Origin: Blasia pusilla
Taxonomy: Eukaryota
NCBI GenBank assembly: GCA_050084515.1
Contig: CM114271.1
Span: 22,444,001-22,508,000 of the forward strand
Direction of reading: 5' to 3'
DNA length: 64,000 nucleotides
Shown here piece by piece: positions 1-20,503 of the stretch. Positions within the stretch are counted from its first letter, which is position 1. Each line of letters begins with the position of its first letter. Below the pieces are notes generated by a model. The model saw nothing but the letters and a program-made list of their open reading frames with translations. It had not been told where the DNA came from and made no database searches. Position numbers and translations under genes: made by a program.

Positions 1-516
1 AAACCCAACTTCCCCTATGTCCCCCTTGGGCCATGGATTTTGGCCCTCAATCCAAATATAGTTCACAATCTATGGATCGACGTTTTATTGGTTATCTATC
101 AAGTTGGCTTGGCAGAGGCTTTTGGTAGATTAAGTAGCTTTCTGCTCCCCAAATGCATCTTGTTACTTGGACTTGCATTTCATTTGTCTCATAGCTAGTG
201 CCGGTCTTGACTCCTTTTTTGGCGTATCATGGTTGTCTTGCCGCCCATTACATTTCGTGACTAGTCTCAAGACGTCTCACCCATCTTGATTACTGGTGTG
301 TTCCTTGCTTCAAGCCCTTAACTTGACACTTGGCTCCAAGGTCTCAAAACTTGCTTGCCTTGCCTTTGTCCACAGGAGTAGCTACACCTCTTTCGTGCCT
401 AAATCTAGTCTTAAGACACGTGCAGGTCTTGCCTAGCGTTAGTCCCACGAAAGGGTTCCGCCCCCTTTCATAATCTCATGACTAACTAGTCTAGGTTTCG
501 ACTTAGGTGAGTCACA
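1..516 (-). repeat. 3' LTR (partial) of the gypsy element
   Basis: 190-516 aligns by eye with 21145-21474 (shared cacttggctccaaggtctcaaa, cctagcgttagtccc, ctagtctaggttt). The minus strand begins TG at 516, preceded by a purine-rich tract. Confidence 0.65.
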
Positions 517-2439
517 ACAAGATCTTTCCTCTTTGGACTTGCAATCATGACTCGCTTCTCTAGTTCTCGCTAGAATGGACAAGTAAGTCGAAAACCTCTT
601 CCACTTGAGTTGACCCTCTTGAAGACACAATAGGTAATCCCTCAGTTGAATTCACCAACGCCTTTGGTTTTGGCCTATTTCCTCACAGGACATCCAAGCC
701 TACGCCAATCTTATCTATCTCGATGTGTCGATTCGTACTAAGTACATTATACTTAGACTTGAATTTCCATAACAAACCGTGTCAAGCTCAACCATAACAA
801 GTAAATCCATCTCAATAAAAACATTCAAAACTCATTCCTCATTCAAGAAAAAATTTGGACACTTTATTGAATTCTTGGACTTTTCCAAATTTTTGCATAC
901 CATTAACATGATACTCCAAATAAAAATTTAGACAATGAAAATCCTACAAACTAGGCCACTACGATCAAGCTATGCACCAAACTCTAGTCTCACCATCTAC
1001 CTTCCCTTCAATTTTCTACTTCTATATTTGTCTAGAATTTGAAGTTCCTTTCCATAAGTCAAATTTCTTTTTGGTTCCCATGTTCTTTTGAATAAATCAT
1101 AACCTTTCTACACCACGAAGTACTTGTTTACAAATCTTTTTCCTCTCTTTACTCTATGCTCATCTTGGTCTTTGACTATGGTTGGGTCGGATCGTATCAG
1201 TCCTCTCCAAGAAGAGTCTTGATCATCCACAAATGACTTTAATTCACTTATATGGAACACATCATGAACTCACCTTATCTCCAAGAACAACCTCAATTGG
1301 TATGACACCTCTTAATCTTTTTAATATCTCAAAGGGTCATGCATATTCTATTTTCGCATCATCTTCCAAGAGATACTTGAAAATAATTGGGGAGACCTTA
1401 GTCTTATCTAGAAAAGATGCCCAAAAAAGCCCAAGATATTCAAGAACTTATCTATAATAGATCCCCAAGATAGGCATGGGCGTGTTCTAACGATGCAGGC
1501 CTCTTAGCATGCAATCACATGCCAAGAAATGCTCCATTATCATAATGGAACTCCTGAATTGAGATGCCATTAGTTCTTCAAACCAAGTTGGGGTTCTAGG
1601 ATTGAATCCCACCACCAAAAAAATTTTCTGTATCTTTTCTCTAAATCCATGGAAATATTCTACTTTAACTGTGCCATAGGCATCTTCTTTTCCCAATTTT
1701 TTTGATCTATCAAAATAGAGTTTCACCACTACTCCTCAAGTACTAAGTTTACAAATTTTGCTCGACCTTTTGTGTTTGAGTGATAACTTGAACGTAGGAG
1801 CAAATCTGCTCCTTGAGTCATAAGCAAACACATCCAAAACTTAGAGACAAACTTGGGATCCCAATCAGACATTAAATCACTTGGAAAACACAAATTTTTG
1901 AAAATATTGCTAAATAAAAATGAGTGGCTTCCCATGAGGTAATTGTATTTCAAGTCAAAATGGAAACTCTTAGCTTAGAAATTGCTCTACCACTACCATG
2001 ATCGGAGAAAATACTTTCAATTCAGCTTACAATACAATGAAATCCATGGTGACACTTTCCCATGGTCCACTTGCAATTGAAAAATCTTAAAGAAGCCATT
2101 GTTATCTTGCCATAGTCCGTTCAATCCTTTCGGCAAACCAAACACAATTGGACATACTTTATGGTATCTTTTTCTTGAGATGGCCAATAGAATATTTCTT
2201 AAGAATCTCCAAAGTCGCTATCCAACGTAGATGTCCCACTTTGGGTGTATCTTGATGAACCTTGGTCCTTAAACTCTAAGGAACATATATCCTTTGTTGC
2301 TTCCATTTCACAACACCATCCACAAGTGTCACATGCCTCGTACGCGTCCCCTTCTTTAGAGCCTCTAACCATCCTTAAGCAATTTTATCATGCTAGTAAG
2401 CCAACTTCACCAAGTTTCTCCAATCAGTTTCTGATACCA

Positions 2440-3883
2440 AAGTTCCTCTCGAGTATTGCTCCAGCGTACTTAAGGCATCGACCACAATATTTTTCTTTCC
2501 TAGCTTATAAATGATTCTCATATATAATCTCACTACGTATTCTTGTCGTGTACCTACTCCCTTGAATGCCCATCTTGTGTATTGCGGAAGCTTGTGTTCA
2601 ACACATCATGCTCTTCTTACCGATCTGCATCCAAACACACTCACATTAGCCATGGTTTGGATCAACCATCCTTGAATCTCCCGAGTCTTGGTCTCGGGCC
2701 ACCCTTTAAGCTCATTGATCTAGGCGGGGTCAGATACCAACCTAACCCCTCACTCCCCAACACACGCAAGTCATTCAAGACTTGGGACATATTTCATTGA
2801 TAATTTAGGAACCGAAATGACACGAGCGTGCCTAACAGTCCCAACTACCCAATGGACCTTGAATGAGTCTCTAACTAGGAATCAATATCTGAGTCATAGA
2901 TCAAGGCCCAAGGTTGGCAAGGTTGCACGGAAATGGACAAGTCCGGACATGTCCTCGAACATGCCCGGCCCATACCTGAGCCCGCTCAAGAGCCCACAGC
3001 GTAGACCCGGGCTGTCAGAGCCCGCACCCGTTGCACGGCCGGCGGCAAGCCCGCGGGGCACGCTTGGCCCCCATTGGATGGGCTTAGGTCTGCTCAAGGC
3101 CCGCATGGTGGACTAAGAGCCCAAGCAAGGCCTTCCCCTAGCCCACCATGTGGGCCTTGCATGGGCTTGAGCACGTCCTATGGGGGCCAAGCCCGCCTTG
3201 CGGGCATCCTATGGGCCCCGGAATGGATGCGGGCTCCGTCAGCCTTGGTCTACGTAGAGGGCTCCGTGCGGGCTCCAAGCAGGCCGTAGATATCAAGGTG
3301 CGGAAGGACATATGTCCGCGAACATGAACATGTCCACGGACTTGGACTTTGTCTGTGTGCAACCCTAAAGGTCCGTTATTTGTTCCATTTGGACTTAGCT
3401 CGGTGTCAAAACCCCAATGCTAATCTTTCAATCCATCTCGTGCCCTTGGTTCACCCTTATGGTCTCCAAGGTCGGGTTCAGGTTCCAAACATTCCTTGGA
3501 GATCCTCCCCCTTATATATAGTTCTAGAGATCCCTACCCCCTCCCTACATCTAGGGAAGCTATCTTGTGGCCCTCAACCTAATTATTTATGGCCCTCAAC
3601 CTAAATATCATTTCGATAGTTTGGGAATATATATTTTCTAGATATCTATTTATTCATTTTTCTAGATTATAATGCATTGGAATTGGAATTGGCTTCTTAC
3701 AAGCTTTTCAACACCATCTTATTCACCCAAAATGCATCTTGAGTCTAGTCATTATGATTTCAAACATGGAGAATCCCCAAACACCCAATCAAGTTCTAAA
3801 CTAGGTTGAAGTCCCTTGGCACCCAACTTTGGTAGGACTTGAGCTCTTCTCAAGTCTTGCTAAAAGTTGTTTTGCTAGGTCAC
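2440..3883 (-). mobile_element. Probable nested LTR-like segment between integrase and RNase H remnants
   Basis: Non-coding with a GC-rich core (2900-3350). It shares ggccctcaa with the LTR at 1-60, has PBS-like tctgatacca at 2430-2439, and ends ...ggtcaca next to a PPT-like tract. Boundaries are uncertain. Confidence 0.35.
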
Positions 3884-6340
3884 AACCCCCATTATTTGAG
3901 ACGCACATCAAAGCTCGTGTCTTGCTTGTGCAACTCATATCTCACTCATGAGATTCTGGCACGTTTCCATCCTAGAGTGAACCCACTAGAGTTCTGATGT
4001 CATGCAATGGCACATGTTTGGTTATGAGGGTTACAAGAATTCTTACCAATAGAGTTTTTTTGAGGAAAAATCTCTTGACTTGCAAAATATTTGCAAATGA
4101 TGTTGTTGGTGTAAACCTTGAAGTGCAGACTATGCAACAAGTATACTTCCAACTTCTTGAGAAAATGAATCAACACATACATCTCCCTTTCATGAGGCTT
4201 GTTATTCTCTAACTTGGCTGACTCATCAAAAATTGATCAATCTACTTAGTTTAACACTTCCCTAATTGCATAGTTAGATGCATTGGTCCAAACTTTGAAT
4301 AAGACCCTGATTTCCAATAACTTGAGTTCATGAGGGTTTTTAACCAAAAACTTTAGTTACTTAAATTCCTCCTAAGACTCCTCAAACCATCAAAATACCA
4401 TTTCTTTCCATGTCGAGTTATAGAGCGGTCAAGCAACCTTGGAAAAATCATAGATATGTCTTCTATAGAAGGTTACAAATCCAAAAGATGACCTTTTCTT
4501 GATTGAATTCCTTGGTGCTGGCCATAAGGCCCATAACTTCATAATTAACCTCAAGCTTGTCATGATTGGGTAGTATGCCTTCCATTTTCAATGTATGTCC
4601 CAAGCATTCCACTTCTTGGACCATGAAGCAATACTTAGAAAGTTTCATGAACAACTTATTCTTCTTCAAACGCCCCAAGACTTCTTTGAGGAGAACCTCA
4701 TGTTCCTTCTAGTTCACTGAATATATGAAGATCTTATCAAAGAATTCTACCACTCCCCTATCTAATAGATCCTAAAAGATAGAATTCACGAGAGTTATGA
4801 ATGTAGCCAACGCGTTAGTTAGTTAAAACAACATCACTAGGAACTAGTAGGATTCGAATCTTGTCCTCATCTTTATCTTATGTTTAACCTCCTCTATTAT
4901 CCAGATTTGGTAATACTCTTGTGTTAGTTCAATCTTTGCAAAATACTTGGACCCTACCACTGCATCAGACAAGTCAACTGCCAAAGGCAACTAATATTTG
5001 TCCTTGATGGTCTTTTGGTTCAACCTCTTGTAATGAATGAACCCGCTTTCCTCCAATGCCTCAATGTGCTCATACAAGAGTTGTCTTTCTTGGGGAGTCA
5101 TACTCCAAGAATTCCTCATAATCGGGGCCATTATAGATTTCAATTCAATCTTATGACCCACGTCTCACCTAGGCGGCAACCCTTTAAGAAGTTCCTTCCA
5201 AGATTTTTCTTAGTTCCTCTTTTAGTGGCACTTCATCCAATTCAGACTCCAAAGTTTTCAACGTGATTCCTCAAAATTGGAACCCTCCCTTGAGATTATT
5301 TTCAAATTGCCTTGTAGAAATCAATTGAGCAACCTATTTTACTTGATTAACCCTCAAAATTTGAGGACGCAATTTTGTGCTTTGAACCTCGAGAATCCTC
5401 ATGGCATTTCCATCACCAAGAGGAACCTTTTATATGCCTTTAGTTGATATAAGCACTCTAGCATATCTACGCAAAAATCTAAGCGATAAAATCATATATA
5501 TATATATTCGAGTCTTTCTACCATCTTCAGATCTAGAAAGTTGAAGATCAGCTCTATATCAATCAAAGCAACCATGGATTTTCGTGCAATAAGTACCTCA
5601 ACTAGATATTAACATTCATTAACAACCTGATGAAAATCCATTGAAGACTCATCACCTTAATTCCCTCAACTCATTCCCTCAAGGCTCGCGATCAATCATG
5701 CTAAACGTCAAGATGATAGTCTCACTTACCTACTCAACATCCTCATGCTTGTTGATTTCTCTTGAATTGCTCACTGTGGCAAGGGGGCTGGTATTATGGC
5801 AGGAGAGAGAAAGAGAGGAAGAGAGGAGAGTCTCTCTTAAAAAAAAAGGGCCAAATCCGCCTCCTCTCTTCAAAACTTTTTGACTTATTTGAAATTTTTG
5901 TTTGCTTTCAAATTCATGAAATATTTAGAAGAGAGTAGGTAGTGGTCCACATTCGGGCCTTAAGAAACCTCCTTTTTCCAGGGGGCGAAAAACAAGTAGA
6001 CATCATAAGTCCACTACAAACATTTTTCCATCACGCTCCATGTGAGCCTAAGTTTCTTCACATTGCCTGTCTCAATCTACAGTAAGCTGTGCCCAGGGCT
6101 ATTTTTTTTGGAGGACCATTGGCAAATAATGTGACAAGAAGTAGCAATCTCATCTCAATGAAAGGTTCAAATAACGACCAACTTTGTGAAATGTGAACTC
6201 AGGAGACGATAATTAAACCAAAAGATTTTTAGCTTTCTGGAGTAAAGAGGAAATGATGTCCCTTCATTCAGATCCTAAATCTGATAAACCGAGAAGCTAC
6301 ACCCCTCCCAATCTGTCAGAATTTTACAGGTTCCAACTCT

Positions 6341-7405
6341 TGCAACCCGTCGGAATCAGATGGCTTGCACCTCTTGCAAGCAAGCTCACCATAACAAAGG
6401 AAAGATTTTGAGAAGTGATTCCATTCCACCCTGCACCCACAAAAATTCAACTTTTTGGGAATCCGAAATGGCAATCCGACAGGTTATAGGAATCCAACAC
6501 GTCTTAGAGAAGAAAAGAAGCCTAAGATTGGTTTGACGATACTAGGGGAACGAGCCAAAAGTGAAGAAGCCCTTCAAAATACCTCAAAATTTGGTGTCCC
6601 AGGGAAAGAGTCCGATCACTCAAGCAGCCAACCTGTCGGAATCCGACAGCTTGCTTGGAAATGGTTGAAAATTTGCAGTGTTGAAAAAGTGAAAAGTTGC
6701 AACCCGTCGGAATCCGACGGGTTGCAAAATTTTAATTCTGAGTAGCTAGACGAACACAATCCACAAGTCCAAAAAAAATATTCAGCAAAATTTTACAAAC
6801 ACCATTATCGGTTGAAAAAATCTCGTCCTTTATTACATCCAAAGGAATCTCGAAAATGTACATTTGATCTAGTCTATGATTTCTTCAGCCTCGTCATCTA
6901 TAATTTTACTCCTAACTCTCCTAGGTTCCTGTACAAAAGGAATGTCTTGGGATACAAGTGGCTCCTTTGGCCGATTGTAGACGGGGATCGAAAATATTGG
7001 GGAATTAGAGAGCCTTGGCCCCCCCTTAGGTACACCATAACCGTCGCATGTAACCTGATTTGAGTCCCACCGCCTTCCTCAGCAGTATATCTTGCACGCT
7101 CTGCAATGTGACACCCATCAAGTATCAATATATGCTCCGTCCTTGGAAATACCATGATGGCAATCCCACAGGTAATAGGAATCCAACATGTCTTAGAGAA
7201 GAGAAGAAGCCTACGCCTTGTTTGACGATACTAGGGGAAGGTGCCAAAGTGAAGAAGCCCGCCAGAATGCCTCTAAAGAGTCCGAAAGAGTCCGATCACT
7301 CACGCAGCCAACCTGTCGGATTCCGACAGGTTGCCTGGAAGTGGTTAAAAAGGTGCAGTGGTCAAAAAGTGAAAAGTTGCAAGCCTTGGAAATCCGGCAG
7401 GTTGT
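6341..7405. repeat. Left subterminal cluster of CAACCCGTC-N7-GACGGGTTG palindromes
   Basis: Perfect 31-bp palindrome TTGCAACCCGTCGGA-A-TCCGACGGGTTGCAA at 6697-6727; variants near 6341, 6628, 7307 and 7378. Confidence 0.9.
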
Positions 7406-7590
7406 AAAATAGAAGTCCTCGGAGTACATAGACGATCACATTTGACAAGACCAAAAAAGATATTCAGAAAAATTTTACAAACACCATCATCGTTCGAAAA
7501 AATCTTGTCCTTTAATATATCTGAAAGAAGCTCGGAACTGTACATTTGATCTATTCTATAAAATATTTTTCCTCGTCATCAAATAAATCC
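6470..7590 (+). repeat. Direct duplication of ~430 bp (6470-6900 and 7159-7590)
   Basis: Both copies begin ggcaatcc.acaggt.ataggaatccaaca.gtcttagagaaga and end cctcgtcatc. Confidence 0.85.
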
Positions 7591-8289
7591 CTACTCAAAA
7601 CGCTGCAGTCAAGCTGGGTCCTTGAGTTCTTTGAACTCACTCATCATCGTCCGAGAGCTCTTCCAAGATTACTGTCGGCCTTGTCCTCCCAATTTTCAGA
7701 ATCGTGGGAAGAGACAATGGTGTCACTACCAATGGTGGGTCTGGAACCGGAGCTCTCAGCTTCGGAGGAGAGTTGTACGCCCCAACTAGCCTGTCGTAAT
7801 CTGCCTTTGCCTCCTTGCAAAGATCAAACAATTATTGCTTTCCCTCAAGGGAGAGAATGTTCGTGCCACTCTGCCAGACGCCTCTGATACTCGCTCCTGA
7901 AAGGCCCACTAAGTCGAACACCAAGTCACCCGGCCTTGAGCAGAGCTTGATGAGCGTTTTGAATCAGGGGTGGCGACTTTTCCCTTCCTCCAAGTAAGGG
8001 GGTACCGTCTTGCATGTAAATTCCCAGGGGGGAATTTTATAAACTATCTAAGCTGTACCCATCGGAGCATGGATCCAGGATCCATGCTTAAACACTTGGA
8101 AGTTGTGCTCGGGCCGAACAAAGCAGTAAACATAAGATTGGTCCATTTGTAAAGAAGCACGTTGGAAACAATGTCAGCAACAAGAAAGAGCTCCTTGACC
8201 ACTGGTCTACTCTCAGTATGGTGACATAATGTGCGACACGTCCCCAAAGAACTTCGCTTAACCCCAGAGAACTTCGTTATAATCCTAAC

Positions 8290-8625
8290 ATTGGAGCAAC
8301 CTGTCGGAGTCCGACGGGTTGTTTTACAAGTGTTGTGTGATTTTTTTGTCCATGAGCAATCCGTCGGAAGGCGACAGGTTGCTGGCTTAGAGCAGCCCAT
8401 GGTTGGCTAAGAGCAACCCGTCGCTTTCAGACGGGTTGTATCATTCCAGAAACACAAGGAAAAAGCATGAGCACTTGCAACCCGTCGGGTTCCGACGGGT
8501 TGCATTCACCCAATGGAGACTTGCGGTAAATTTGCAACCCGTCGCTTTCAGACGGATTGCACCACCGAAGTCTCCAGCTCAAACAATCCGAGGGGTTGCA
8601 TACAGAGATGCAACTCGTCGGAGAA
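8290..8625. repeat. Palindrome array within probable intron 2 of the MTase gene
   Basis: About 6 copies at ~60-bp spacing (8295, 8355, 8412, 8476, 8533, 8610). Candidate donor GTAAG at 8657; the acceptor is unclear. Confidence 0.8.
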
Positions 8626-10719
8626 AGACAATTTGGATACAAATTTAGAGCCCTTACCCGAATTTGACTCGTCGCGGATCAGAATGGGTACTCGTTCTTG
8701 ATGACCCACCATTGCGCCGTCCTCCACTTCAGCGACCTCTTGACGCACTCGAGGTTGAAGAGCTTGTCCTCGCTCCCTCCAGTCAAAACTAAGAAATAGC
8801 CCCTGTCACTGAGATAAGCGTATGCAAAGGAAAAGAGGAGCGCGATCTGGTCATAAGAAAGAGGGAAATTCCAGTCTAGGACCCTGTCGGACGGATTCTC
8901 GTCCCACAAGCGCAACCCCGAGGGCAAATCAGTGACGAGGAGATCCACCGCCACTTCTTCGACCTCCCCATGGACCGTCCAGGCAGCATGCCCGTTTTGT
9001 TGAAGCTTCCATCCCAGCGTTGTCAATTTCTTGATGGCGGGTGTCGACGCTTGGAAATTGAAACTTTTCAGCTCATCCAGAAGATTCGTGGAGTGAATGA
9101 TGACGCTTGTCCGGGTCGTTGTTTCTCTATGTCTTCCCAAGGATGATGGAGTGTATTCCACATCCTGGTCTGCTCCCTAGGACAACCCTGGCGCCTCTCA
9201 CTTCCGCTTCTCCCGAGTCTGCGGTCGGCTTGTTGGGGTCTCTATGACCTTAGACTTTGGTGGAGTTTTTTTTGCAGAGGACCTGGTCCGACCCTCTCTC
9301 CCCGCTCGCCTCGACGATTCCGGCTCTTGCCTTGAATTTTCAGCCTCTCTTTGGGAAGACTCGGCCTCAAAATTCTTCGATCCCCTTGCCTTGGCTTTGA
9401 GACTCGCTGTAGATTTGTCCTTGGCGGTGACGACCTTGGACACCAACTTCGCTGTCTGGAGGGCTTGCTCCTCCGCATCTCCTTCGAAAAAGTCTTCAGG
9501 CTAGACAAAATTGTTGATGTCGTCCCTACCTGCAGTCACTACATCATAGAGCAGGCGTAGATCTTTCTCGGTTATGTCCTCAGGGTCGTTGAAGTCCACC
9601 CCAATCGGGAAATTCTCCACCTCCCAATCGGACATGCTTTGAGCCATCTCCATGTCGTACATGGACAATGTCTCTCCATCAGGCGGAGAAGCCCACAATT
9701 TGGAGGCTGCCGGTATTTTTGCCATGTACTTGCATTCTTACAATGGACGAGGTACCTGAACACCATACGTTGGGCAGCTCTTAGTCGAGATGCATTGGCC
9801 GCCTACTCCTGAAGATCTTGCTTCTATTTCTTCGTTAAGGTCTGCCTGAGGGAGGATGCGATCCTTGAACATCGTCCTGAAACCTGGGTTTTTTATGGGC
9901 TTGTCCCGCATGTCATCCAGCCAAAGTTCAAAATCTTTAGCACTCTCCAGGTTTGCTTCCTCCGAAACTGGCTCTATTCTTTTCAACTCCGCTTGGAGAC
10001 CCACGAGCATGGACTTCCCGAGAAGCCGCAACGCGTCCCAGAATGACCATTCACGGAGCCAATGGGAGATCACTGGATTAGAGACACCCGGAGGATGGTG
10101 TGCCGCCCTCTTTTGGGCCTCTGTGCCCTCGAGATTGATTTTCATGAGTCGGATTCTCCTAAATTTGCTAATTCCAGACAAGGCAAATCGATGCACGCGA
10201 TCGAGAGACACTTTCTCCCCAATCCGACCTTGCGGATCTTCATCCCTCTTCCGCTAGCGCTTGATTATCGCCTTCAGCTCCTTGTAGAAATTGGGGCCAA
10301 GCTCGAGGTTGAGAATGGCGATGTAGCACTGCATCTTGCTTGCCGTGTACTTTGTAGCTACAGATACTGTAGCTTGGATGAACTTTGCACGCTCAAACAC
10401 AGACACTTTCTCCCTCTGCTCCAGCTCCAATGCAGCGCTCTTCTTGGCGGCCTGTATCTTCGACCAACAAAGGATTGTCACGGTTGCATCTTGGGAAATA
10501 AATTTATTTGCCCAAGTCTTTTTTTTTATTTGAGCACCCTTTGCCAACATCTCATTTACAAGGGTGTCGCCCAAGAACCCCTTGTACTCTTCCGGTGCGT
10601 CGTTAGCACTTTCTTCACCCGATCGCAATCCTGGATCCAGTGGTGGGTGACATTCCCCTCCGATACAATCCTGCACATCCAAACTCAATATAAGAATTTT
10701 TGCAAGGTACATGGGTTCT

Positions 10720-11342
10720 TGCAACCTGTCGGACTCCGACAGGTCGTCAAAGCTCATGGTCAGAATGGTAGCTACGAGCTAAATTTTACAACCCATCGGA
10801 GTCCGACGGATTGCATTCAGATTTGTGATTGCCACGTTTCAACCCGTCGGACTCCGACGGGTTGTCAAATAATTTGTATTTAGAGAATGGTTACCGGAAG
10901 AAAAGTGAACATATCAACCCGTCGAAGTCCGACAGGTTGCGCAATTTCAATTAATGTTGGAATTTGACGCAAAAAATGTAGCTCCCCCCATCGGACTCTG
11001 ACGAGTTGCTTTCGGCCAAAAACATCAAAAATCATCCAAAAACACCTGCGAGTCAAGCAAACCGTCAGACTCCGATGAGTTGCTTTCTTCAAAAAACATC
11101 CAAAAATAGCGGCCGGTCGAGCAACTCGTTGGACTCCGACGAGTTGCTTTCGGCCAAAAACATCCTACACCTGTGGTCAGTCGAACAACTCATCGGACTC
11201 CAACGAGTTGCTTTCGGCCAAAAACATCCTAAACCAGTGATTAGTCGAACAACTCGTCGGAGTCCGATGAGTTGCTTTCGGCCAAAAAATCCCAAAAACA
11301 GTGGCGACTCAAACAACTTGTCGGAGTCCGACGGTTTGCAGC
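10720..11342. repeat. Palindrome array within intron 1 of the MTase gene
   Basis: About 10 copies at ~60-70-bp period; local variant gcaactcgtcggactccgacgagttgctttcggccaaaaacatc. Confidence 0.9.
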
Positions 11343-12671
11343 AAGAGGAAACTTACGCGTTCATGGCATACATGGCCATCTCTACCGTCGCCATGTGATG
11401 AGGGTATGGATGTAGCACGACTGCCTTCACGCAAAAATGTGCCTCCAATGAGTTTGGGCGCTCCTCTGCAAACTGGGTCCACGCCATGAACATGTAGTTT
11501 CCATCCTAGATGGAGAAATACAGGTTCCGCATCCAGCTGAATTCCATCCCCTCTATCGCCCTTCTGAATTCCTGATCTCTCATCCTCTAGAATGTGTCGA
11601 GCGCTTCCAAGTCCTCCTCCGTAACCAGCGCTTGGGTTCCATTTTCATTATAAGGCTGAACATAGAACGGAGGGAAGCTGTTGACGTAGGATGTTGTCGA
11701 TGCCGATTGTTTCAGCTTCGCAATATCCTCGTCAGATTGAATTTCGCGGACGTACTCCATTGTTCGCAATCGGCAAAGTGGAATTCTCGGAGCGTTCTGA
11801 CCCTCCATCAGTGCCATATGCTTTACCACCTATCACAACGGGGACAAGGTCAATAAGCTACACTGAATTGCCATTGAATTGCAGCATGGGCCTTCACATA
11901 ATTCAAAGAACACAAATCCTCTCTTACCCGCTCGAAGATTGGGTTGGTGTCTTGGCCAGCCAACTGCTCTTGGATAGTAGCTGGCAAGTCCACTGAACAC
12001 TCGTCGATCCGATAGAGGTTGATTTCTTCCTCCAGGCTTAGAGACGAGGATGACCGCTCTCCTGCTTCTTCAGCGATGTCCACCATCTCCACGATGGCGG
12101 TCCTCATGACCTCATCGTCCGTCACTTGAACTTCGGCCATTTCCGGTATATTGATTGTGTCCCTGGACTTCATCGGGGATATTTCCTGCATCTCAACACT
12201 TTCGGTTGGACGGGCAGGGGCTTTCTTCAATGGCAATCGCTTTTTCCCTCTGAGCTTTTTCCAATTCTGCTCTCCTCACCGACGCGTCCAGACGCTTCTT
12301 TTCACGCTTTTTGTCGGCGATCCTTTTCTTCAAGGCCTGCGACGCCTCAGCCTCTGCGTTCTATTTTTCGAGCGCCTCATTTACGCGTTTTGCAAGAAGC
12401 TCCTGCTAGTGCATCTCCGCTTCCCTTTCCCACTCCTCGATTTCTTGCTGCCTTATCTAATTGGCCAAACGAGGCCCTTGAGATGGTGACGAAGGAGTCC
12501 TCATGGACTTGGGAGTGAAGCTCCCAACCTTGTTTGCTTGAGATTTTTCCCTCGTCATTGTTCCCGAAAATGCCTCTTATGGACAAGGAGATTGCTCTCT
12601 GTGCACGATGAATCGCCTCGAGGAATCGCCTTGATGAGTCACCTTGCTGATGTCGCGATGAGTCGCCTTGA

Positions 12672-12800
12672 TGAGTAGCTCGAATCGTCTCGCAATCGTT
12701 TGCTCGAATCGTCTCGTGATCGTTTGCTCGAATCATCTCGCGATCGTTTGCTTGAATCGTCTCGCGATCATTCGCTCGAATTGTCTCGCGATGAGTCGCC
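12672..12800. repeat. 24-bp tandem minisatellite (~5 copies)
   Basis: Unit gctcgaatcgtctcgcgatcgttt; it reads ETIRANDR repeats in ORF 12377-12829 (-). Confidence 0.85.
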
Positions 12801-12989
12801 GTGTAAAGCCCCCCTTGGTATTTGGTCAACTGCTGCGCGGAAGAGGAATTGAGATCGCGAAACGAAAAACCGGAAATTAGCGAACCTTCGCCTATTTATA
12901 CTTTTCAAGCCGTTGGACTGACTGTTGGGTCGCATCGTCCTTCCGACGGCGACGTGCCGGCCGTTATGGAAGTCTGGACGTGAAAAAAA

Positions 12990-15262
12990 CCAACCTGACG
13001 GCTTCGACGGGTTGCACGCTTCCCGAGGGTTCAAGGCATCCGTCCTCGTGGCAACCCGTCGGAGACCAACAGGTTGCGCGCCTCCGCCGTCTTCAGACAA
13101 GAACACGAGGTACCCGCACAACCTCTCGGAGACCGACAGGTTGCGCGCCTATGCAGTCTTCGGACAAGAACGCGAGGTAACTACACAACTTGTCGGAGAC
13201 CGATGGGTTGCACGCTTCCCTCGTCTTGGGATTACAAGGCGGGCTTCCCGCGCAACTCGTTGGAGGCTGACACGTTGCACACTTCCTTCATGTAAGCGTT
13301 ACAAGGCGAGGCACTTGCGCAACCCGTCTGAGGTCGACGGGTTGCGCGCCTCCGCCGTCTTTGGGCAAGAAGCTGCGGCACCCTCGCAACTCGTCGGAAA
13401 TGTTGTGTCGAGAGTCTTTCTTCGAGCAAGGTCGGGCCTTCTAGCTGCGGTAGATGCGGTCGATGCAAGGAGAACCCTCTAATAAGTTCTCCTTTTTCAA
13501 TACAAAATTATGATGTACACTCTCCATTCTCTCACGACAGGTATCACAAATAGAAGTGCCGAGGCGATCACTTCTTCGTAACATCGGACCCCGAAATTCC
13601 TAACTATAAAATCCCTATAAACTATTTTACGCTTGTACACGAAGAAGATAGCACAACTAGTGTTAAACCCTAGTTGAGTAGGCCTATTGACATCCATGGA
13701 TCGCTATATAAGGACATACAAAGTACAATCCCATGTCCTTCCATATGTGACAATAGGAAGAATCAGCGGAGTTGGAGATTGCATGACTTGGTTCATGAAC
13801 GCCTCCCCAAAGTGATAAACTAAATAGCGAGTGAACCAGTGCCTATCTACAAAGAGTACCTTGACATGGTAAGGATTGAGGAAAGGAAAGTCGGGCACAG
13901 CTCGTGCTCCACCCCTATCCATGCTTGACACACATTCTCTACTCTCCTCAAGAATGGGTTTTGGCGGAGTTATTCTCCCAAGAGGGGTAATCCACTCTCA
14001 TTGGGGAAGTAACAAGCCAAAACATCCGCTATTTTAGTATGACTAAACTCCTCTACGGTGACAAACCTCTCATCCCCACACACACACCACACTCTAGAAA
14101 TCTCTCGAAGAATAGACCATGGTCAAGTTACTCTCCCAAGAAGGGTGATCCACTCTCATTGGAAGAGCAAGCAATCCCAAAGCCATACACTCAAGAGAGA
14201 CACGAGAGACTCAAGATGTGGAATAGAAGGTGATGAACCCTTGAAGGTCCCTCCTCTTTATATACTCACAAGGGATCCACAAGAGTACGAAATAGAGCTT
14301 ATCTTATCTTGTGCCACATGGCTTCCTCTCAAGGCTTAGCCAATCACATTTTGACACAAGTAGATTTCCTCTTATCTCTTCCAAAATATCCTCTTTTACC
14401 CACATGATATTTTCCAAATTACCCCAACTAACCTAGCCACCAACCAAGACTACTTTTGTTTTTCATTAAAGCAACTACTTTACTTTTATAAAGTCATCTT
14501 TTATTTATTACCTCCTTTTCCTAAAGTTGGGCCCGCATAAAAGAGGCACCATAAAGAGGTTTAAACATAAGAATCTCCTTTTTCTAAGCCAATTTACTTA
14601 ATACTAATGAAACTCTATCTAACACTTAATGACGAAGGAGTTTACACACTGGTTGATTTTACTATACGACAACGGGTTACACGCTTCCTTAATGTAAGTG
14701 TTACAAGGTGAGGCAATTGCACAACCCGTCTGAGGCCGACGGGTTGCGCGCCTCCGCCGTCTTCGGGAAAGAAGGCGCGGCACCCGTGCAACTCGTCGGA
14801 GAGCGACGGGTTGCACGCTTCCTTCATGTTAAAGTTAGAAGCTGAGGCAGAAGCGTGCAACCCGTTCGAAGCCAATGGGTTGCACACTTTGCTTATCTTG
14901 GGTTAATAGGCGAGGTACCAGGGCAACCCGTCAATTATCGATAGGTTGCACGCTTTTCTATCCCTCGGGTAACAATGCGACAACGCATAGTTCTGAGGCA
15001 ACCCATTGCAATCCGACGGGTCACAAGATCTATCTTGAGTTGGACAATCCTGCAAAAGTCCCCAACGATTGGTTGCCTTAGCATATGCAATCCATATCTT
15101 GTGTTTGATGCTAGCAAAATCGACTCAAAAGACCTTTGGTTGGCAAGAAGGGGGTTCCAACCCAACGGACTCCGACGGGTTCCAGCAAAAAGAAATGCAT
15201 GCTTCGCAACCAACATCTCTGATTCCCAAATTCTGCAACCCACCTGACTCCGACACGTTGCA
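12990..15262. repeat. Palindrome array (~67-bp period) in the divergent intergenic region
   Basis: Copies near 12991, 13052, 13118, 13186, 13252, 13320, 13387 (split by an insertion, completed at 14672), 14722, 14789, 14858, 14926, 15158 and 15235. Confidence 0.9.
13401..14671 (-). mobile_element. Probable solo LTR inserted into the palindrome array
   Basis: AT-richer, palindrome-free block with TG...CA ends (tgttgtgtcg...tacgaca) that splits one palindrome. 14230-14330 resembles the reverse complement of the LTR at 21700-21790. No clear TSD. Confidence 0.55.
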
Positions 15263-15430
15263 ACAGAATCAAATCCATTGTGTCAGACATTTTCACCTAC
15301 CAAACTTCATCTTGTCAGTCAAATTCTGTCAGGAGAATCTGAGTCCCTATTCGCTATAAATTAAACATTCTCATTCTCATTCGCATTCTCATACCAATTC
15401 TCTGTCTCCTCTCGGTGGAATCTTCTGGGA

Positions 15431-18400
15431 ATGGATGATTATGTAAAGCTCACTTGTGGCAGTCATCTAGCGGCCCTTCCTCAATCAGAAATCGTTCGAC
15501 CGCAAGCTCGTGAGTCTTTCATAGCAATGGATGAAATTTTTCTCTTAGTTCGATTTCTTCTCCAAATTGGAACCATCTTTGTATCCAAGGATGTTAGGGT
15601 GGACGGTACGGAGGACATAATAGGTGAGACAGTCCAGCCAATGATTAGAGACCGTAAAGTATGGAATCTCCTACCTCTAGCAAATGGTCAATACAGAGTT
15701 TACGGCTTGCCTCTGAATTCCTCTGTTTCCCAAGTAGATGGTCGAGAATTTCCTAGTGCACCAAGCTCTACATTTGCAACTCCTAGCTCAGTAGATCCGG
15801 CATCGTCTCCAACTTCACAGGCTCGTAACAATGTTGTACAGCCTGAAGATATTCTGGATGTCGTCAACCTCAATGGATCTGTCGGACACCAATCGGGTCC
15901 TCTGTCCGCCTACTTATTCCTCTTGCGAGTATCAGGAAATAGTTTGCTATCGTCTCTGGCCTTGAAAATATTCAAGCACATTCTTGTCGACGAGCTGCCG
16001 CCCACGTACAATGATAATTGCATTTTTGAGTTGCCTCCACTTGCTGCTCTTGCTCAAAAGAAAGATGGAGGACGATTGAAGGGTATGGACAGAAAGTTTG
16101 ATTGTCATCGATGATGCATGATTCAACGGACTAGTGCTTCAATTCCAAATGGTCCTTGGATTGTCTCCCGCCGCCAATGCGTTGGAGCCTTGGAGTGTAG
16201 AAGTCTAGCATGCCCGTATCTAGAGCGCAACGGGCGAGTCAATACGTCGCAATTCCCCCCCAAGAATGCAGAAATTCCATACAAGGTCGGTGCCACCATA
16301 CCGCCGGGAGGCCATCGATGTCCTCATTGTCAGACATCCCCCTTCTGCGTTGGAGCGTGTCCTGCATACATATTTTTCATTGTCCAGGACTTGGGCTCCA
16401 CGTCAGAGTACACAAGGCTGGCAGTTCATGTTGGCTCCCACACTCATCCTGTGACCGATGCAATTCAGAGACACATCAAGGAGGATGTGGCGAAGAAAGT
16501 TGCCAAGGTCTACAGAAACTCCCCCGGTTCAAAGCCCGGAGTGATCAAGCTCACAACAGCATCACAAATTTGTGAACAATTTCTTGGAATCCCTAGACAA
16601 GGCGAGATCACGGTTGCTCAAGAGAAACAACTTTGGGAAAATCTCGCATTTCTCGCTGATCCTGAATGCTTCCAAAATTTGCTGCGTCTAATATGGGTAC
16701 CGAATGGAAAGACGACCGAAATGGATGCTATTGCCAAAATCAAGGCCAACTCCAAATTTCCATTCATTCAGAGATGGAAGTTCATGGGCCAGGGAGGCGA
16801 GGGATCTAGGGCCTATGTCTTCAAAATGTCAACCACAAGTCCGTCGAGTGGCCTCGATCTTATAGATCGAATGAGGAAAGGGGAAGATCTTTACGGGAGC
16901 TGGGTAAGCTTTGATATTTGCTACAGAGTGCTGAACGGATGGTTGACAATGGGTGCTCACGTTTATGACCATGTGGAGAAGGGACTCAAAACTATATTTG
17001 TCTGTGAAGTAAAAGCACAAGACGTTGGCAGTTTGAAGATGTGCTGGTTACTCTTATTGGAGGTGGTGAAGGAAAACAAAAGGCCACCTCCGGAAATTTA
17101 TGGGTTCATGGCGGACAATGCACAACCTGGGTGGATTGCTATCAGGGAAGTGTTCTGGGGTGGAGAGGGAAAGGTCGGATGCTTTCCATTGGCAACAGTC
17201 TGTGACCCGGTACACCAAATCTTGCATCAAGGAGAATAAGAGGACAGAGCATGTCACTCTACTCCAACGCTGCAAGGACAACAAAACCTTGAAACATGCC
17301 ATGGAATGCCAAGAAGAACTTCATGGGTGGTGGAGGAAGCATGCAATTGAGGGGAAGTACAAAGAGTTGTGCTCTTGGCTGAGTTGGTGGACTGTACATA
17401 TGAGACAATGGGGAAACTTCATGTGGCAGGTGAGTTCAATATTTTGTCTTGTCAAGCTCACGCTGAGAATTATTTGAAAAGTTGCAACTCAAATTGAGAA
17501 GCGTGGGAACTATAGGGATTTCAAACGGAAGAAACCAAGCAACTTGTCGGATGCGACGGGTTGCCCGAGTGTGCAACCCGTCGGAAACAGACTGGTTGCC
17601 CGAGTGTGCAACCCGTCGGAAACGGACAGGTTGCCTGAGTGTGCAACCAGTCTGAAATCGACGGGTTGCATCAAGAATTTTGGTGCAATCCATATATAAG
17701 TATGCAAGTCGCATGTATACAAGGCCTGCAAATAGTTCGACCCGGATGGGTTTCGGATGACTTGCACTTGGATCTTCCAGCCCGGAGTGGCCAAAGGTTC
17801 TTGCAACCTGTCGGAATCGGACGAGTTGCAGTAGGTGGCTCCTGGGTGTTGCAACACGTTGGGATCCGACGGGTCGCAAAGTCGTTCATGGGATGCCTCG
17901 GCCTTGCAACCCGTCTGGTTCTGACATGTAACTTAATTCTTTGACTTTTGAGCTATTTTTGTTCCCTTCTATCATTGCCGTCGTTGCAGGGATTGAACAT
18001 TCATGAAAATGCCCTTTGCCCCAACACAAATGGAGCAGAAAGTGTTCATTCCTCCTGGAGGTCGTCACAAGCATGCCAACGAATTTCACTTGTGGAGGCA
18101 TGCCAACAAGACCATGCAAGAGCAATGCTACAATCTGCAGCATCCCATATCTTCCTCACAAAAGGCATAACAAAAGGAAGGGGGCCTTTGATCTACAAGC
18201 TCTATGTCAGGGCGGCTGTGAGATCTGGAGATGAAAAACTCTATGTGGAAGCCTTCAACCGGTGCGTAGTAGGAACTTCCCTCGAGCAAGACGTACACAT
18301 TGGTGGGAATATTTGTGGGTGGGTTTCAAGACGTCCCATACAGATGGTGGTAGAGCAGTCCGAGCGAGACTCGTGGAGACCAGATAAGTATCTTGTCTTC

Positions 18401-19491
18401 AGGCAGGTGAAGAGGCAACATCGAGGAACGAATCCGGTGATTGATTTGGATGAGGAAATTACACCACCCAAGTATTCTGGGACCCCGGACCGCTCCCAAA
18501 TCCGTGATGGAGTAACTTCTCCAAAATCAGTTAATGTTTTATTTCAAAAGTCCTCCATTGCTGGAAGTTCGCAACATCCGGTCGCTGGGGTGGTTCAACA
18601 ATATGGGATTCTGGTCATGGAGGTGGATTGCAACCTAAAACGGTGGCATATATCTTGGAGCAACCCGAGACGTGGACCCACTTGCAGGGCAAGATCTTAT
18701 GGCATTAGGAGAGCATGCGGCACTTTCCTAAATAAGAACTGTACAAGGACTGGACGACCAATGCCTTGGTTTTGGGGACTCAAAACCTTTGATCGTTTCA
18801 CGAGGACCTGGGATCAATTGAAGTTCTTCTTCTGCCCAAATGAATCTTGCGCTTTCCGCAAGTCTTATCCGGATGCCATTGGAGCTCCGGGGAATACCCT
18901 CACGATTTGGCCCACCGACGGAGGTACGAATTACACTCAAGACGAAGTGGACAATCTTACAAGTTCTGATTTCAGACTCGTAGACGGAGGAAGTTCAGAG
19001 CATGTTCACATTACAGAGACCTTTGCATTTCGTATTCAACCCAAGATTGACGTCAACATGTATCCGGAGAAGGTGGATGATCTCAATCCACTATTTCTGT
19101 TTGAGTCTAGAAATGGGGTGAAGAGAAACAGAAGGTGTAGGCAATGGTGGAGAGAGCAAAGCGAATTGCATTAGCTCGAGAGGCAAAAATGGAGATCATC
19201 GCCACAAAAGATGTCCACAGTGGCAATGGAATAGGAAGGATGTATTGTTTCAGGAACAACACTGTAAATTCAAGTGTCACACGGGTGTATGTGGTGCACA
19301 TCTGTTGCTTTCCCACATGTTCATGTGATGACTTTGTCCAAAGAGAGATAAGTGGCAAAATGTAGTTCCCTTGTAATCACATGTACTATGTGTTGCTTGT
19401 AGTTTTAAGAGAGTCGGAGGTAGGAGTAGGAATCCACCAACCAATTCTATCCCTCAAAGAAGTGCGAAGTATTTTAAACAAACCACTTTGA
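15431..19491 (+). pseudogene. Mutator-like transposase: GCM-like Zn domain, MULE DDE core, SWIM finger (decayed; one intron 17430-17989)
   Basis: Cys/His domain CVGALEC..CP...CPHC..CPA...HVGSHTHP. Catalytic candidates SFD (16913), MADN (17114), FHW (CxxH position) and TNGAESVH (~18040). SWIM CSC..PCNH (19318-19380). Phase-0 intron GTGAGT..TTGCAG joins ORFs 17100 and 17948. Stops at 16112 and 19363; frameshifts near 17165 and 19140. Confidence 0.85.
17535..17925. repeat. Palindrome array within the transposase intron
   Basis: About 7 copies (17539, 17572, 17607, 17643 at a ~35-bp period; 17801, 17850, 17905). Confidence 0.9.
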
Positions 19492-20503
19492 GGATGCAAA
19501 ATGAGGTTTTAGATTGTACTTTCATTTTTCCAGAACCTTCACTTTGAGCTTGAACTTTATTCAACCGAGGGCAAATCATAGATTTTTTCCAAACCTTGGA
19601 TGGAAAAAGTGATTGGTTCCACACTTATGATTCCACTGATTTTTCAGTTTTCTAAATTTTGTGCAATTTGCAACTCGTCGGACTCAAAGGGGTTGCCAAA
19701 ATGTGGAAGAGGAAAAAAAAAACTGTGGGAGTGCTAAAGAACTGAGCACAAAAGTGCAAAAAAAATCACACAAAAAGGGTTTCCTCTCTTCAACCCAACG
19801 GAACTCTCTTCAAATCATAGGAAACTCTCTTCAAAAAAATTATCTCTTTCTGTTGAAGGTAGTTTCCTCTCTCCTCTCTCCTCTCTTCCTCTCCTCTTAC
19901 CGCACCTCACTGTGGCAATTGTACGACCTTTCTTGCATGGGCCCTTTTTCCTTGGGAAAATCCCATTTGAAATGACCAACATCATCGTACACATAATACC
20001 TTTGAGCTCTAGCGTAGAGTCCCTGGCTTGCATTTGTTGGGGTTTGAACCTTTTGGGTTTTGACCCCACTTATGGCCTTGTCTTATGGGATTTCCTCTTT
20101 TTTGACCAATGAAATGGTGCCCCTACCTTTGAATGGGGACCATCTTGTCTCACTTCTTGTGACTTGGATCACCTGCCATCAATTGAGTAGCCATATGAAT
20201 GGTTGCCTTTAGCTTCCCAAACTTGGTTTCTTGGGTTGCACTTTTCTCCCTTCATTTCCGTTTCAAGTTGGGTGGCATTCCCTCCACTAAGTTGAAGATT
20301 TGGTTGGCATCTAACATTTTATCAATCACCGTCAACATCTCTTGGAACTAAGTAATGAAGCTTGCAATCAAGCCTTTCAATTGCATTTTCCACAACCGGA
20401 ATCTTGGCTTTGGTTGCTTGATCCTTTGGGACTAAATACCTTCTCATTTTTGAGGTGAGTGCCCCCCATACGGCTCTATGGTATTTCGGTCCTTAAAAAT
20501 TTT

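Follow-up and report, generated by a model that had tools for sequence, protein, structure and literature searches.

Palindrome clusters in the non-coding parts of a two-gene Mutator-like transposon: putative binding sites for an element-encoded factor

The element and its boundaries

The stretch of DNA analysed here – the window, 64 kb in length – harbours a 14-kb element that is a Mutator-like DNA transposon, though Pfam gives no MULE or DDE match, and that belongs, as seen in DNA contigs of the same organism, to a high-copy family. Its features are the following (strand given where assigned):

5770..5782: left 13-bp direct repeat, candidate target-site duplication
5783..19905: whole element, 14,123 bp, two divergent genes, a decayed copy
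5783..7636, minus strand: non-coding left end plus the second gene's 3′ UTR; palindromes at 6342, 6628, 6699 and 7308
7637..8146, minus strand: second gene, final coding exon; a stretch resembling a SAM-binding motif, and in this copy three in-frame stops
8147..8657, minus strand: second gene, intron 2; six palindromes between 8296 and 8636, about 60 bp apart
8658..10670, minus strand: central large exon of the second gene, without a palindrome and covered by contiguous tblastn HSPs from 27 homologues
10671..11356, minus strand: second gene, intron 1; ten palindromes
11357..12735, minus strand: second gene, 5′ coding portion; homologue HSPs over 11829–11356
12736..15430: divergent promoter/intergenic region, with 14 palindromes at about 67-bp spacing (12989–13412 and 14721–15261)
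13401..14671, minus strand: unrelated insertion of 1271 bp, TG..CA, solo-LTR-like, outside the array system
15431..17430, plus strand: transposase exon 1, by tblastn of P0001–P0004
17431..17989, plus strand: GT..AG intron of the transposase gene (phase 0); seven palindromes
17990..19480, plus strand: transposase exon 2, by tblastn of P0004 (residues 621–897 and 978–1041)
19481..19905: non-coding right end; a single decayed palindrome, 19670–19696
19906..19918: right 13-bp direct repeat

The flanking 13-bp repeat is exact; the window contains just two copies of it (5770 and 19906), and 0 would be expected. It exceeds the usual length of Mutator-like target-site duplications – 8–11 bp in the available text of PMC6446971 – and the ends of the element were set from one full copy. 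RNA reads of another copy match only from 5783 inward (loose end at 5812). In run X1, the depth of DNA contigs, which is not a copy number, is 2–12 to the left of about 5634, ranges from hundreds to more than 100,000 inside the element and is 0–15 from 20376. The termini share only a 26-bp GA-rich imperfect inverted match, some 20–35 bp inside the ends; terminal inverted repeats are long in most MULE families and absent from non-TIR MULEs. The left end also contains a duplication of about 430 bp (6468–6898 versus 7157–7580, 82% identity).

This copy is decayed, with in-frame stops at 8679, 10254, 11587 and 16112 as well as frameshifts; as it is dead, its own arrays are uninformative on present function.

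The two genes

In transposase exon 1, there is a TGA at 16112–16114 and a frameshift near 17164; almost every DNA contig and RNA read carries G at position 16114, so that the codon is TGG. The intron that an earlier note, made from the letters of the window, had placed in this gene is supported by P0004, whose residues 612 and 621 align at 17435 and 18020, respectively. A Pfam search of the window ORFs and P0001–P0004, with E up to 10, recovered no MULE or DDE domain, the one match being PF04434 SWIM in P0004 (E 2.5, 8.2 bits, against a cut-off of 19.6). The corresponding C-terminal CxC..CxH pattern, SWIM-like, can be seen in P0004; in exon 2 of the window a stop breaks it. In the ESM Atlas, P0004 adjoins clusters with PF10551 MULE and PF04434 SWIM (scores 0.90–0.94), which serves as a lead only. 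Read by eye, the transposase homologues share two invariant Asp residues, 67 residues apart and followed by a [C/D]xxH motif. Their N-terminal Cys/His-rich region is invariant at C22, C28, C33, C69, H71, C72, C78, C82, H105, H109 and H111.

Candidate TATA-like boxes, also found by eye, lie at 15355–15361 (plus strand) and, towards the second gene, at 12893–12900 (minus strand). The 5′ part of the second gene includes 13-bp and 24-bp tandem repeats at 12607–12792 (Tandem Repeats Finder, TRF) and a 95-nt intron (about 11833–11927) whose splice sites were read by eye. Intron 1 has a GTAAGT donor at 11356 and a CAG acceptor at 10673–10671; five of seven upstream HSPs stop exactly at 11356 and alignments restart at 10586–10592, in agreement with its earlier placement. 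Intron 2 has a GTAAGG donor at 8657 and an acceptor that reads CAA in this copy. It, too, is supported as proposed, albeit with weak E-values: P0036 aligns with its residue 522 at 8685 and its residue 593 at 7960, so that about 71 residues of the homologue correspond to 725 nt, and the last exon is matched at 7960–7730 by P0036 593–677 and P0025 554–602 (E 0.01–0.04 in a 3.8-kb search). Within the central exon, position 10254 holds an in-frame TAG and 8679 a TGA. No splice joint was listed from the RNA-seq reads for any intron of either gene, and in run X22 the intron-1 array has an RNA depth of 3.74, no lower than the 3.05 of the exon bin beside it.

The earlier note had called the second gene an MTase. 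A Pfam search of the window ORFs gave no match, and no family rose above its cut-off for the second gene together with 18 homologues; nor was there recognisable similarity to a characterised DNA-binding or anti-silencing protein, in a comparison with proteins other than VANC itself. Below threshold, five of eight homologues match PF01555, along no more than about 50 profile positions and with 11.5–20.6 bits where the cut-off is 26.7, and NCBIfam NF010253 matches three of five (E 0.017–0.071). Like PF01555 beta-class MTases, the homologues carry in their C-terminal part a stretch similar to SAM-binding motif I that follows a D-x-P-x motif, the order typical of beta-class N6-adenine/N4-cytosine MTases; unlike them, they match only under the curated cut-offs and carry the tetrapeptide D[LM]P[ST]. 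At the aligned catalytic place the window has DLPS, and homologues have DMPS, DLPS, DLPT or HLPS, whereas the canonical beta-class motif is (D/N/S)PP(Y/F/W). The MTase label is weak, with sub-threshold matches of homologues behind it and neither a Pfam-level match nor the canonical catalytic motif.

The palindrome and its distribution

The repeated unit is GCAACCCGTCGGA-N-TCCGACGGGTTGC, a CpG-rich perfect inverted repeat of 27 bases found in about 40 copies at 6342–19696 and practically nowhere else in the window. Its 25-nt core (at most 3 mismatches) has 22 matches, all at 6343–17828, against 0 in 100 shuffles, and its 11-nt half-site (at most 1 mismatch) has 43 against 0.38 expected, 42 of them at 6342–19680. 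The 12-nt half-site (at most 2 mismatches) occurs 70 times within the element and 3 times, weakly, in the remaining 50 kb or so. Scoring the whole 27-mer (at most 8 mismatches over 24 positions) yields 43 non-overlapping sites, 42 of which lie at 6342–19696, while 20 shuffles yield 0–1 each. For comparison with exons the tally was set at 40 by removing three marginal sites, one beyond the element (3204) and two in non-coding sequence (7379 and 17728). CAAC/GTTG, T9, A19 and T24 are retained in 36–40 of these 40, and the arms are 75% identical over all site pairs.

All four array locations given in the earlier note – 8296–8636, 10721–11339, 12989–13412 with 14721–15261, and 17539–17932 – were recovered, with a site density of 9–15 per kb across three introns and the intergenic region. 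Beyond them, four palindromes at 6342–7334 and the decayed one at 19670 occupy the non-coding ends, so that palindromes are present in each sizeable non-coding compartment of the element; three of the four introns contain them, the exception being the 95-nt intron. The avoidance of exons also holds: no palindrome centre (0/40) falls within coding sequence, which makes up 7298 bp of the 12,850-bp element (insertion subtracted). Such avoidance is also expected from plain purifying selection against coding insertions.

TRF periods of 64 bp (11026–11333), 67 bp (13052–13231) and 35 bp (17555–17669, within the transposase intron) reproduce three of the unit lengths reported earlier; the fourth, about 60 bp, is borne out at 8296–8636 by spacings of 60, 57, 64, 57 and 76 bp, between spacers too diverged for TRF to detect. 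Intron 1 combines four palindromes with unrelated spacers (10721–10940) and six in the 64-bp tandem array (10983–11339). Between arrays, spacer identity is at the random level (0.12–0.50 versus 0.52 for random sequence). Inside the clusters at 8296–8636 and 10721–10940 it is 0.45 and 0.44, against the same 0.52, and the arms there remain 0.79–0.81 identical, whereas three arrays are plain recent tandem duplications (spacer identity 0.57–0.88). As the palindrome alone is common to all arrays and the spacers are unrelated between them, the arrays expanded locally and independently, as the earlier note had proposed.

That note had also suggested looking for different motifs in related families. 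In a 2-kb metagenome contig (L002) whose transposase is 47% identical, an intron occupies the same codon position, in the same phase, as the transposase intron of the window and contains three copies of a different, CpG-containing palindrome of 26 bp – a single relative, covering the transposase part alone. Seven more distant relatives (L001, L003, L007 and L009–L012) have no intron at this site; the intron was therefore gained or lost at some point.

What the palindromes may be

The missing intron in distant relatives is one point in favour of the arrays having arisen by separate insertions of a short palindromic element, MITE- or Introner-like, that is widespread in the rest of the genome; another is that insertion could in principle produce palindromes with unrelated flanks. 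We nevertheless consider this origin, which the earlier note had set against its own reading, highly improbable. Direct words of at least 8 bp flank none of the four arrays, and the half-site is practically confined to the element. Moreover, array bins are 4–24 times shallower in DNA contigs than neighbouring exon bins and not deeper (depth not being a copy number), and this relative rarity argues against MITE insertions. The true foreign insertion at 13401–14671, which splits the intergenic array and cuts the palindrome that starts at 13386, provides a contrast, with a DNA depth of 74,000–131,000, an RNA depth of 65–163, loose ends at both borders and an RNA joint 14671->13401.

A functionless palindromic minisatellite – a hairpin unit expanded by slippage and surviving only where harmless – would need no function to explain its absence from exons. 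The unit does form a very stable DNA hairpin (−15.2 kcal/mol versus −3.7 to −4.3 for shuffles), and the three recent tandem arrays are what slippage would leave. Yet slippage copies spacers along with the palindrome, while six clusters share the palindrome with unrelated spacers; in the two clusters with randomised spacers the arms are still about 80% identical, and L002 retains a cluster of a different palindrome at the same intron. Taken together, these observations make this explanation unlikely.

The palindromes could also be transposase-binding sites that are required in cis for transposition, for assembly of a synaptic complex, and that have spread inward; the subterminal repeats of Ac/Ds and En/Spm offer the comparison. 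Palindromes do occur in both terminal non-coding regions (6342–7334 and 19670), and the transposase has its conserved Cys/His-rich N-terminal region. However, most of the 40 sites (33) sit in introns or the central intergenic region and are thus internal rather than subterminal; the nearest to the ends lie 560 bp and 235 bp away, and the termini themselves have none. In DNA contigs the depth – again not a copy number – is maximal at the termini (74,000–112,000) and minimal over arrays (620 and 1,596), from which it follows that the abundant, multiplied derivatives mostly retain ends and not arrays. Derivatives without arrays fit a role in the expression of autonomous copies rather than a cis need for transposition, and we regard the latter as doubtful.

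Very unlikely, in our view, is an action of the palindromes as RNA, with intronic hairpins influencing splicing or feeding small-RNA production. Such a role would suit the 23 of 42 counted sites that are intronic, in both genes, and the 12–13-bp stems predicted in the pre-mRNA (folded with DNA parameters). It would not suit the 14 sites between the TATA-like boxes, where the bin 14706–15272 has RNA depth 0 in three runs, and stems of 12–13 bp are short for Dicer substrates.

The best explanation, which we hold tentatively and at somewhat less than an even chance, is that the palindromes are putative clusters of binding sites for a sequence-specific factor encoded by the element itself, in the manner of VANC/VANDAL or TnpA/Spm. 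The anatomy, the absence from coding sequence, the independent expansions and the different palindrome at the same intron of a relative are shown; that a protein binds, which one it is, and whether methylation or transcription is affected belong to the inferred part. Either the transposase, through its zinc-finger N-terminus, or the MTase-like product of the second gene may be the binder, which would probably act as a dimer, since the site is a perfect inverted repeat. Clusters in the divergent promoter, three introns and both ends would give an autonomous copy a dense array every 2–3 kb, and binding to them might keep both genes transcribed or counter silencing by DNA methylation, much as VANC does for VANDAL elements and TnpA for Spm elements.

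Comparison with known systems

To our knowledge, sequence-specific self-activation of transposons has been worked out in a few Arabidopsis families only (VANC/VANDAL and TnpA/Spm). According to the available text of PMC5735166, VANC21 localises through a short motif to introns, the stretches between genes and the non-coding termini; the motif lies in tandem repeats, and these differ between related families (PMC5735166 and the accessible part of PMC10398659). The likeness to VANC target arrays drawn in the earlier note stands as an anatomical one, and no further (PMC5735166, same text). Both VANDAL21 (Hiun) of Arabidopsis and the present element are, as far as those sources describe the former, Mutator-like with terminal repeats that are, or in the present element appear to be, degenerate, and both concentrate a family-specific motif in introns, between genes and in the non-coding ends, in tandem repeats that differ by family – here as judged from a single relative. 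They differ in the motif, a 9-bp asymmetric word for VANC21 and a 27-bp CpG-rich perfect palindrome here, and in gene content, with VANA, VANB and VANC in the one and two divergent genes in the other, its accessory gene belonging to no recognisable family. The host here, unlike Arabidopsis, is not a flowering plant to judge by the homologues, and the named relatives of the second gene come from a liverwort.

In the portion of preprint 10.64898/2026.08.24.746577 available, TnpA and a MULE transposase act via dense motif clusters. As described there, dense (at least 4 per kb), CpG-containing, family-specific clusters mark cognate copies of Spm/CACTA, and motif and element lineages diversify together; these traits are shared, but TnpA sites lie at element termini and those of the present element are mostly internal. 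Spm/CACTA also belongs to another transposon superfamily. The genes of maize MuDR are driven from long terminal repeats and converge, unlike those here, which diverge from a central, array-filled promoter between barely detectable terminal repeats. What is shared with MuDR (mudrA and mudrB), going by the available text of PMC6446971, is a two-gene Mutator organisation with an accessory protein of unclear function.

The architecture of the VANC and TnpA systems recurs here with a protein family that Pfam does not recognise and a long, dimer-type palindrome as its unit. If binding is true, recognition of self through motif clusters would be an ancient trait of plant DNA transposons that has arisen repeatedly, targeted epigenome work would gain a further DNA-binding protein with its 27-bp site, and the two motif variants at one intron would offer a clean system of protein–target co-evolution.

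A possible role for the MTase-like protein

A more specific proposal, and a quite unlikely one, is that the second gene encodes a bacterial-type, beta-class MTase-like protein with a remodelled catalytic motif, which would read or mark the palindromes of the element instead of the transposase. A private mark on landing pads in the promoter and introns, evolving in step with the protein, might then shield autonomous copies from silencing by cytosine methylation, and related families would exchange one palindrome for another at a retained landing pad; judged from its sequence, L002 suggests just such a swap. GANTC, the site of CcrM-type enzymes of the beta class, lies at the centre of 18 of the 40 palindromes.

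Extent and state of the element

The window has the look of plant nuclear DNA. The palindromes belong to an element bracketed by a 13-bp exact direct repeat that has only two copies in the window, and its parts are laid out as follows.

5770-5782: left copy of the 13-bp direct repeat
5783-19905: the element, 14,123 bp
7637-12735, minus strand: second gene ('MTase')
13401-14671: foreign insertion (TG..CA), 1271 bp, in the intergenic array
15431-19480, plus strand: putative transposase gene
19906-19918: right copy of the 13-bp direct repeat

DNA contigs from a run with the same species label are concentrated in the bins that span 5634-19808 and nearly absent beyond, and RNA reads of another copy have no sequence in common with the window on the outer side of 5783, with a loose end at 5812. 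Local alignment of the element's two ends returned nothing beyond a short, low-complexity, GA-rich imperfect inverted repeat. The copy in the window is dead; it carries in-frame stops at 16112, 10254, 11587 and 8679, as well as several frameshifts. Almost every DNA contig and RNA read has a G at 16114, which restores a Trp codon, so the family consensus is open there.

Two further features concern the ends. In the terminal bins (5634-6200 and 19242-19808), DNA-contig depth – which is not copy number – is 5-100 times that of the element interior, which suggests that non-autonomous derivatives, shortened to the ends and lacking genes and arrays, are numerous. Near the left end, a segment of ~430 bp that includes a palindrome is duplicated (6468-6898 and 7157-7580, 82% identity, ~690 bp apart).

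The palindrome

The motif that recurs at 6342-19696 is a perfect 27-bp palindrome, GCAACCCGTCGGA-N-TCCGACGGGTTGC. Whole-site scoring gives 43 non-overlapping palindromes, 42 of them inside the element, with 0-1 per shuffled window, and the 25-nt core with at most three mismatches has 22 matches in the window and none in 100 shuffles. An 11-nt half-site with at most one mismatch yields 43 matches against 0.38 expected (42 at 6342-19680), and a 12-nt half-site with at most two mismatches yields 70 within the element and three in the other ~50 kb of the window. Tandem Repeats Finder recovers units of 64, 67 and 35 bp where the earlier note had placed its arrays, and the cluster at 8296-8636 has a spacing of ~60 bp with diverged spacers; from these units and the motif counts, the arrays are real, coordinates included. 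The palindrome pattern had no match among the viral contigs searched.

A CAAC/GTTG core and three further positions are retained in 36-40 of 40 palindromes. Of the 141 departures from consensus, 86 are C>T or G>A, mostly at CpG and CCG cytosines, as expected of a methylated dead copy. GANTC, the target of CcrM-type members of the N6/N4 DNA methylase class, stands at the centre of 18 of the 40. These GANTC-centred palindromes lie mainly in the introns and 3' region of the second gene; the arrays of the intergenic region and the transposase intron are centred otherwise.

Avoidance of coding sequence

None of the 40 palindrome centres falls within coding sequence, in a gene model that counts 7298 bases of the 12,850-bp element (foreign insertion left out) as coding; the count omits three marginal whole-site matches, two of which lie inside the element and are also non-coding. 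The density differs among compartments.

Palindrome density by non-coding compartment of the element (palindromes per kb)
Intron 2 of the second gene: 11.7
Intron 1 of the second gene: 14.6
Intergenic halves: 10.5 and 9.2
Transposase intron: 12.5
Terminal regions: 2.2-2.4

With the six clusters taken as independent, the probability that all would be non-coding is 0.0065, which is only modest, and plain selection against the disruption of exons would yield the same avoidance. Two TATA-like boxes, read by eye, bound the region that the intergenic arrays fill. That the palindromes act in cis for transposition is unlikely; they do extend into the terminal regions, at the low density listed.

The three introns in which the earlier note had seen arrays are backed by alignments to homologues, intron 2 of the second gene less firmly than the others. 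For the transposase intron, the alignment of P0004, a transposase homologue, stops at 17435 (residue 612) and restarts at 18020 (residue 621), with GT..AG boundaries in phase 0. In the second gene, intron 1 has a GTAAGT donor at 11356, exactly where five of the seven upstream HSPs stop. Its CAG acceptor is at 10671, and the alignments restart shortly beyond it, at 10586-10592; the reading phase fits only with a 1-nt change near the donor in the decayed window copy. For intron 2, P0036, a homologue of the second gene, reaches 8685 (residue 522) and restarts at 7960 (residue 593), leaving ~510 nt unexplained. Its donor is GTAAGG at 8657, the expected acceptor is CAA rather than CAG in the window copy, and the HSPs downstream have weak E-values, 0.01-0.04 for a search of 3.8 kb. 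A fourth intron of 95 nt (~11833-11927, read by eye) is without a palindrome.

RNA-seq neither confirmed nor refuted the splicing of the three introns. Three raw runs with the same species label, sampled at 6-12% of their reads, gave low depth over both genes (mostly 0-12), in an orientation that fits sense transcripts, given the usual stranded library type. The splice joints of the three introns were not among the 15 of 59 RNA joints listed. Depth falls over the transposase-intron bin relative to its neighbours, and does not fall over the intron-1 bin in X22, one of the RNA-seq runs. No RNA reads cover the intergenic arrays, and that the palindromes act at the RNA level – as those in introns might – is decidedly unlikely.

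Independent expansion of the arrays

Palindrome arms are 75% identical across all pairs, and the spacers of different clusters (identity 0.12-0.50) are no more alike than random sequence (0.52 ± 0.06), so the arrays expanded independently, as had been proposed. The intergenic halves, with a spacer identity of 0.60, are the exception: they form a single array that an insertion has divided. Recent tandem duplication accounts for three arrays, whose spacer identities are 0.57-0.88. That the arrays are functionless, hairpin-prone minisatellites is nonetheless rather improbable; in the clusters at 8296-8636 and 10721-10940, the spacers have reached the random level and the arms are still ~80% identical, the pattern expected if a palindrome were maintained while the remainder drifted.

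MITE insertion, the alternative that the earlier note had set against its own reading, is very improbable indeed. None of four arrays is flanked by direct words of at least 8 bp, and no palindrome arrays occur elsewhere in the window, outside the element. DNA-contig depth in pure array bins is 620 (10737-11303) and 1,596 (14706-15272), 4-24 times below that of neighbouring exon bins, though depth is not copy number. A genuine insertion looks different: the one at 13401-14671, which cuts one palindrome in two within its loop, has, unlike the arrays, a DNA-contig depth of 74,000-131,000; it is also strongly covered by RNA, and its loose ends are sharp.

This insertion resembles the solo LTR of an active retrotransposon. 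No other part of the stretch is transcribed as strongly; beyond 14671, RNA reads run on into purine-rich sequence that is conserved, and in a few reads 14671 is joined to 13401. The 5 bp on each side differ, without a matching target duplication.

A proposed cis-regulatory reading

Tentatively, the palindromes may be read as a cis-regulatory array of binding sites for a factor encoded by the element; we rank this likeliest because the anatomy matches that of VANDAL21 and the motif clusters of Spm TnpA and Mutator. The published anatomy of VANDAL21 is matched by the palindrome arrays, and VANDAL terminal repeats are degenerate (PMC5735166, PMC10398659). A recent preprint describes Spm TnpA and a Mutator transposase as working via dense, family-specific motif clusters (10.64898/2026.08.24.746577). 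The element shares its type of architecture with the VANC and TnpA systems, yet differs by its long palindromic unit, its unrecognised proteins and its divergent two-gene layout. If the transposase itself is the binder, the cis-regulatory reading and a role in transposition are compatible. In the open-access literature searched, bryophytes included, we found no account of this element family and none of Mutator-like elements with palindromic arrays in their introns.

The encoded proteins

A Pfam search of ten window ORFs gave no relevant match, and a word-index homology search with a C-terminal ORF found nothing.

The plus-strand gene has four homologues (~35% identity) and is a lead for a Mutator-like transposase, short of demonstrated membership. 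The lead rests on a C-terminal CxC..CxH pattern, on a [C/D]xxH motif that comes after two invariant aspartates, on the long flanking duplication, and on the ESM Atlas neighbours, clusters with MULE and SWIM domains (scores 0.90-0.94). Neither this gene nor its homologues has a Pfam match above the cut-off.

The minus-strand gene has 27 distant homologues, the named ones being hypothetical proteins of the liverwort Riccia sorocarpa, and its window ORFs have no Pfam family. In five of eight homologues, PF01555 (N6/N4 DNA methylase) scores 11.5-20.6 bits, under the 26.7 cut-off, over a stretch of only ~50 residues surrounding the SAM-binding motif; with a DNA methyltransferase model of NCBIfam, three of five have sub-threshold E-values of 0.017-0.071. 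From these similarities, 'MTase' is a plausible lead as a label. The catalytic tetrapeptide at the aligned place is D[LM]P[ST], which differs from the canonical form, and enzymatic activity of the protein is uncertain. A PDB profile search found nothing, Foldseek gave no match at E <=0.001, and the ESM Atlas search with P0012 reached a best score of 0.80, too low for use; the AlphaFold model of P0036 has a mean pLDDT of 41, with the C-terminal half below 50.

In the probable 5' coding part of this gene, tandem repeats of 13 bp and 24 bp (12607-12792) would encode an 8-residue repeat in ~5 copies, reminiscent of the variable, repeat-rich regions that VANC proteins are described as having.

Relatives and other repeats

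A metagenome scan with the transposase alignment returned 16 loci, of which L002 is the closest (47% identity); one of its introns agrees with the transposase intron of the window in codon position and phase. Within the 317 bp of that L002 intron lie three copies of another perfect palindrome, 26 bp long and also containing CpG. The more distant L001, L003, L007 and L009-L012 have no intron at that site.

Palindromes of GGGAGTC type in L004, L006 and L010-L012 were considered as a third motif family and rejected: they belong to a separate inserted element, since an ~800-bp repeat sits in opposite orientations in L004 and L010. That repeat, with three such palindromes, lies downstream of the transposase core (L004 ~11740-12480, L010 ~4330-5190).

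L004, whose transposase is 29% identical, also carries an 8-mer unrelated to the palindrome, ATGTTTCA or its complement, with 26 occurrences in 21 kb, where shuffles average 1.4 and have at most 6. They span 265-10132, almost all upstream of the transposase core in 10 kb that are mostly free of ORFs, and may represent that family's own dispersed motif.

Elsewhere in the window, an inverted repeat lies outside the element at 3000-3254 (116 nt, 23-nt loop, 73% complementarity), and a 350-bp satellite unrelated to the element occupies 48291-49354, in 3.1 copies at 86% identity.
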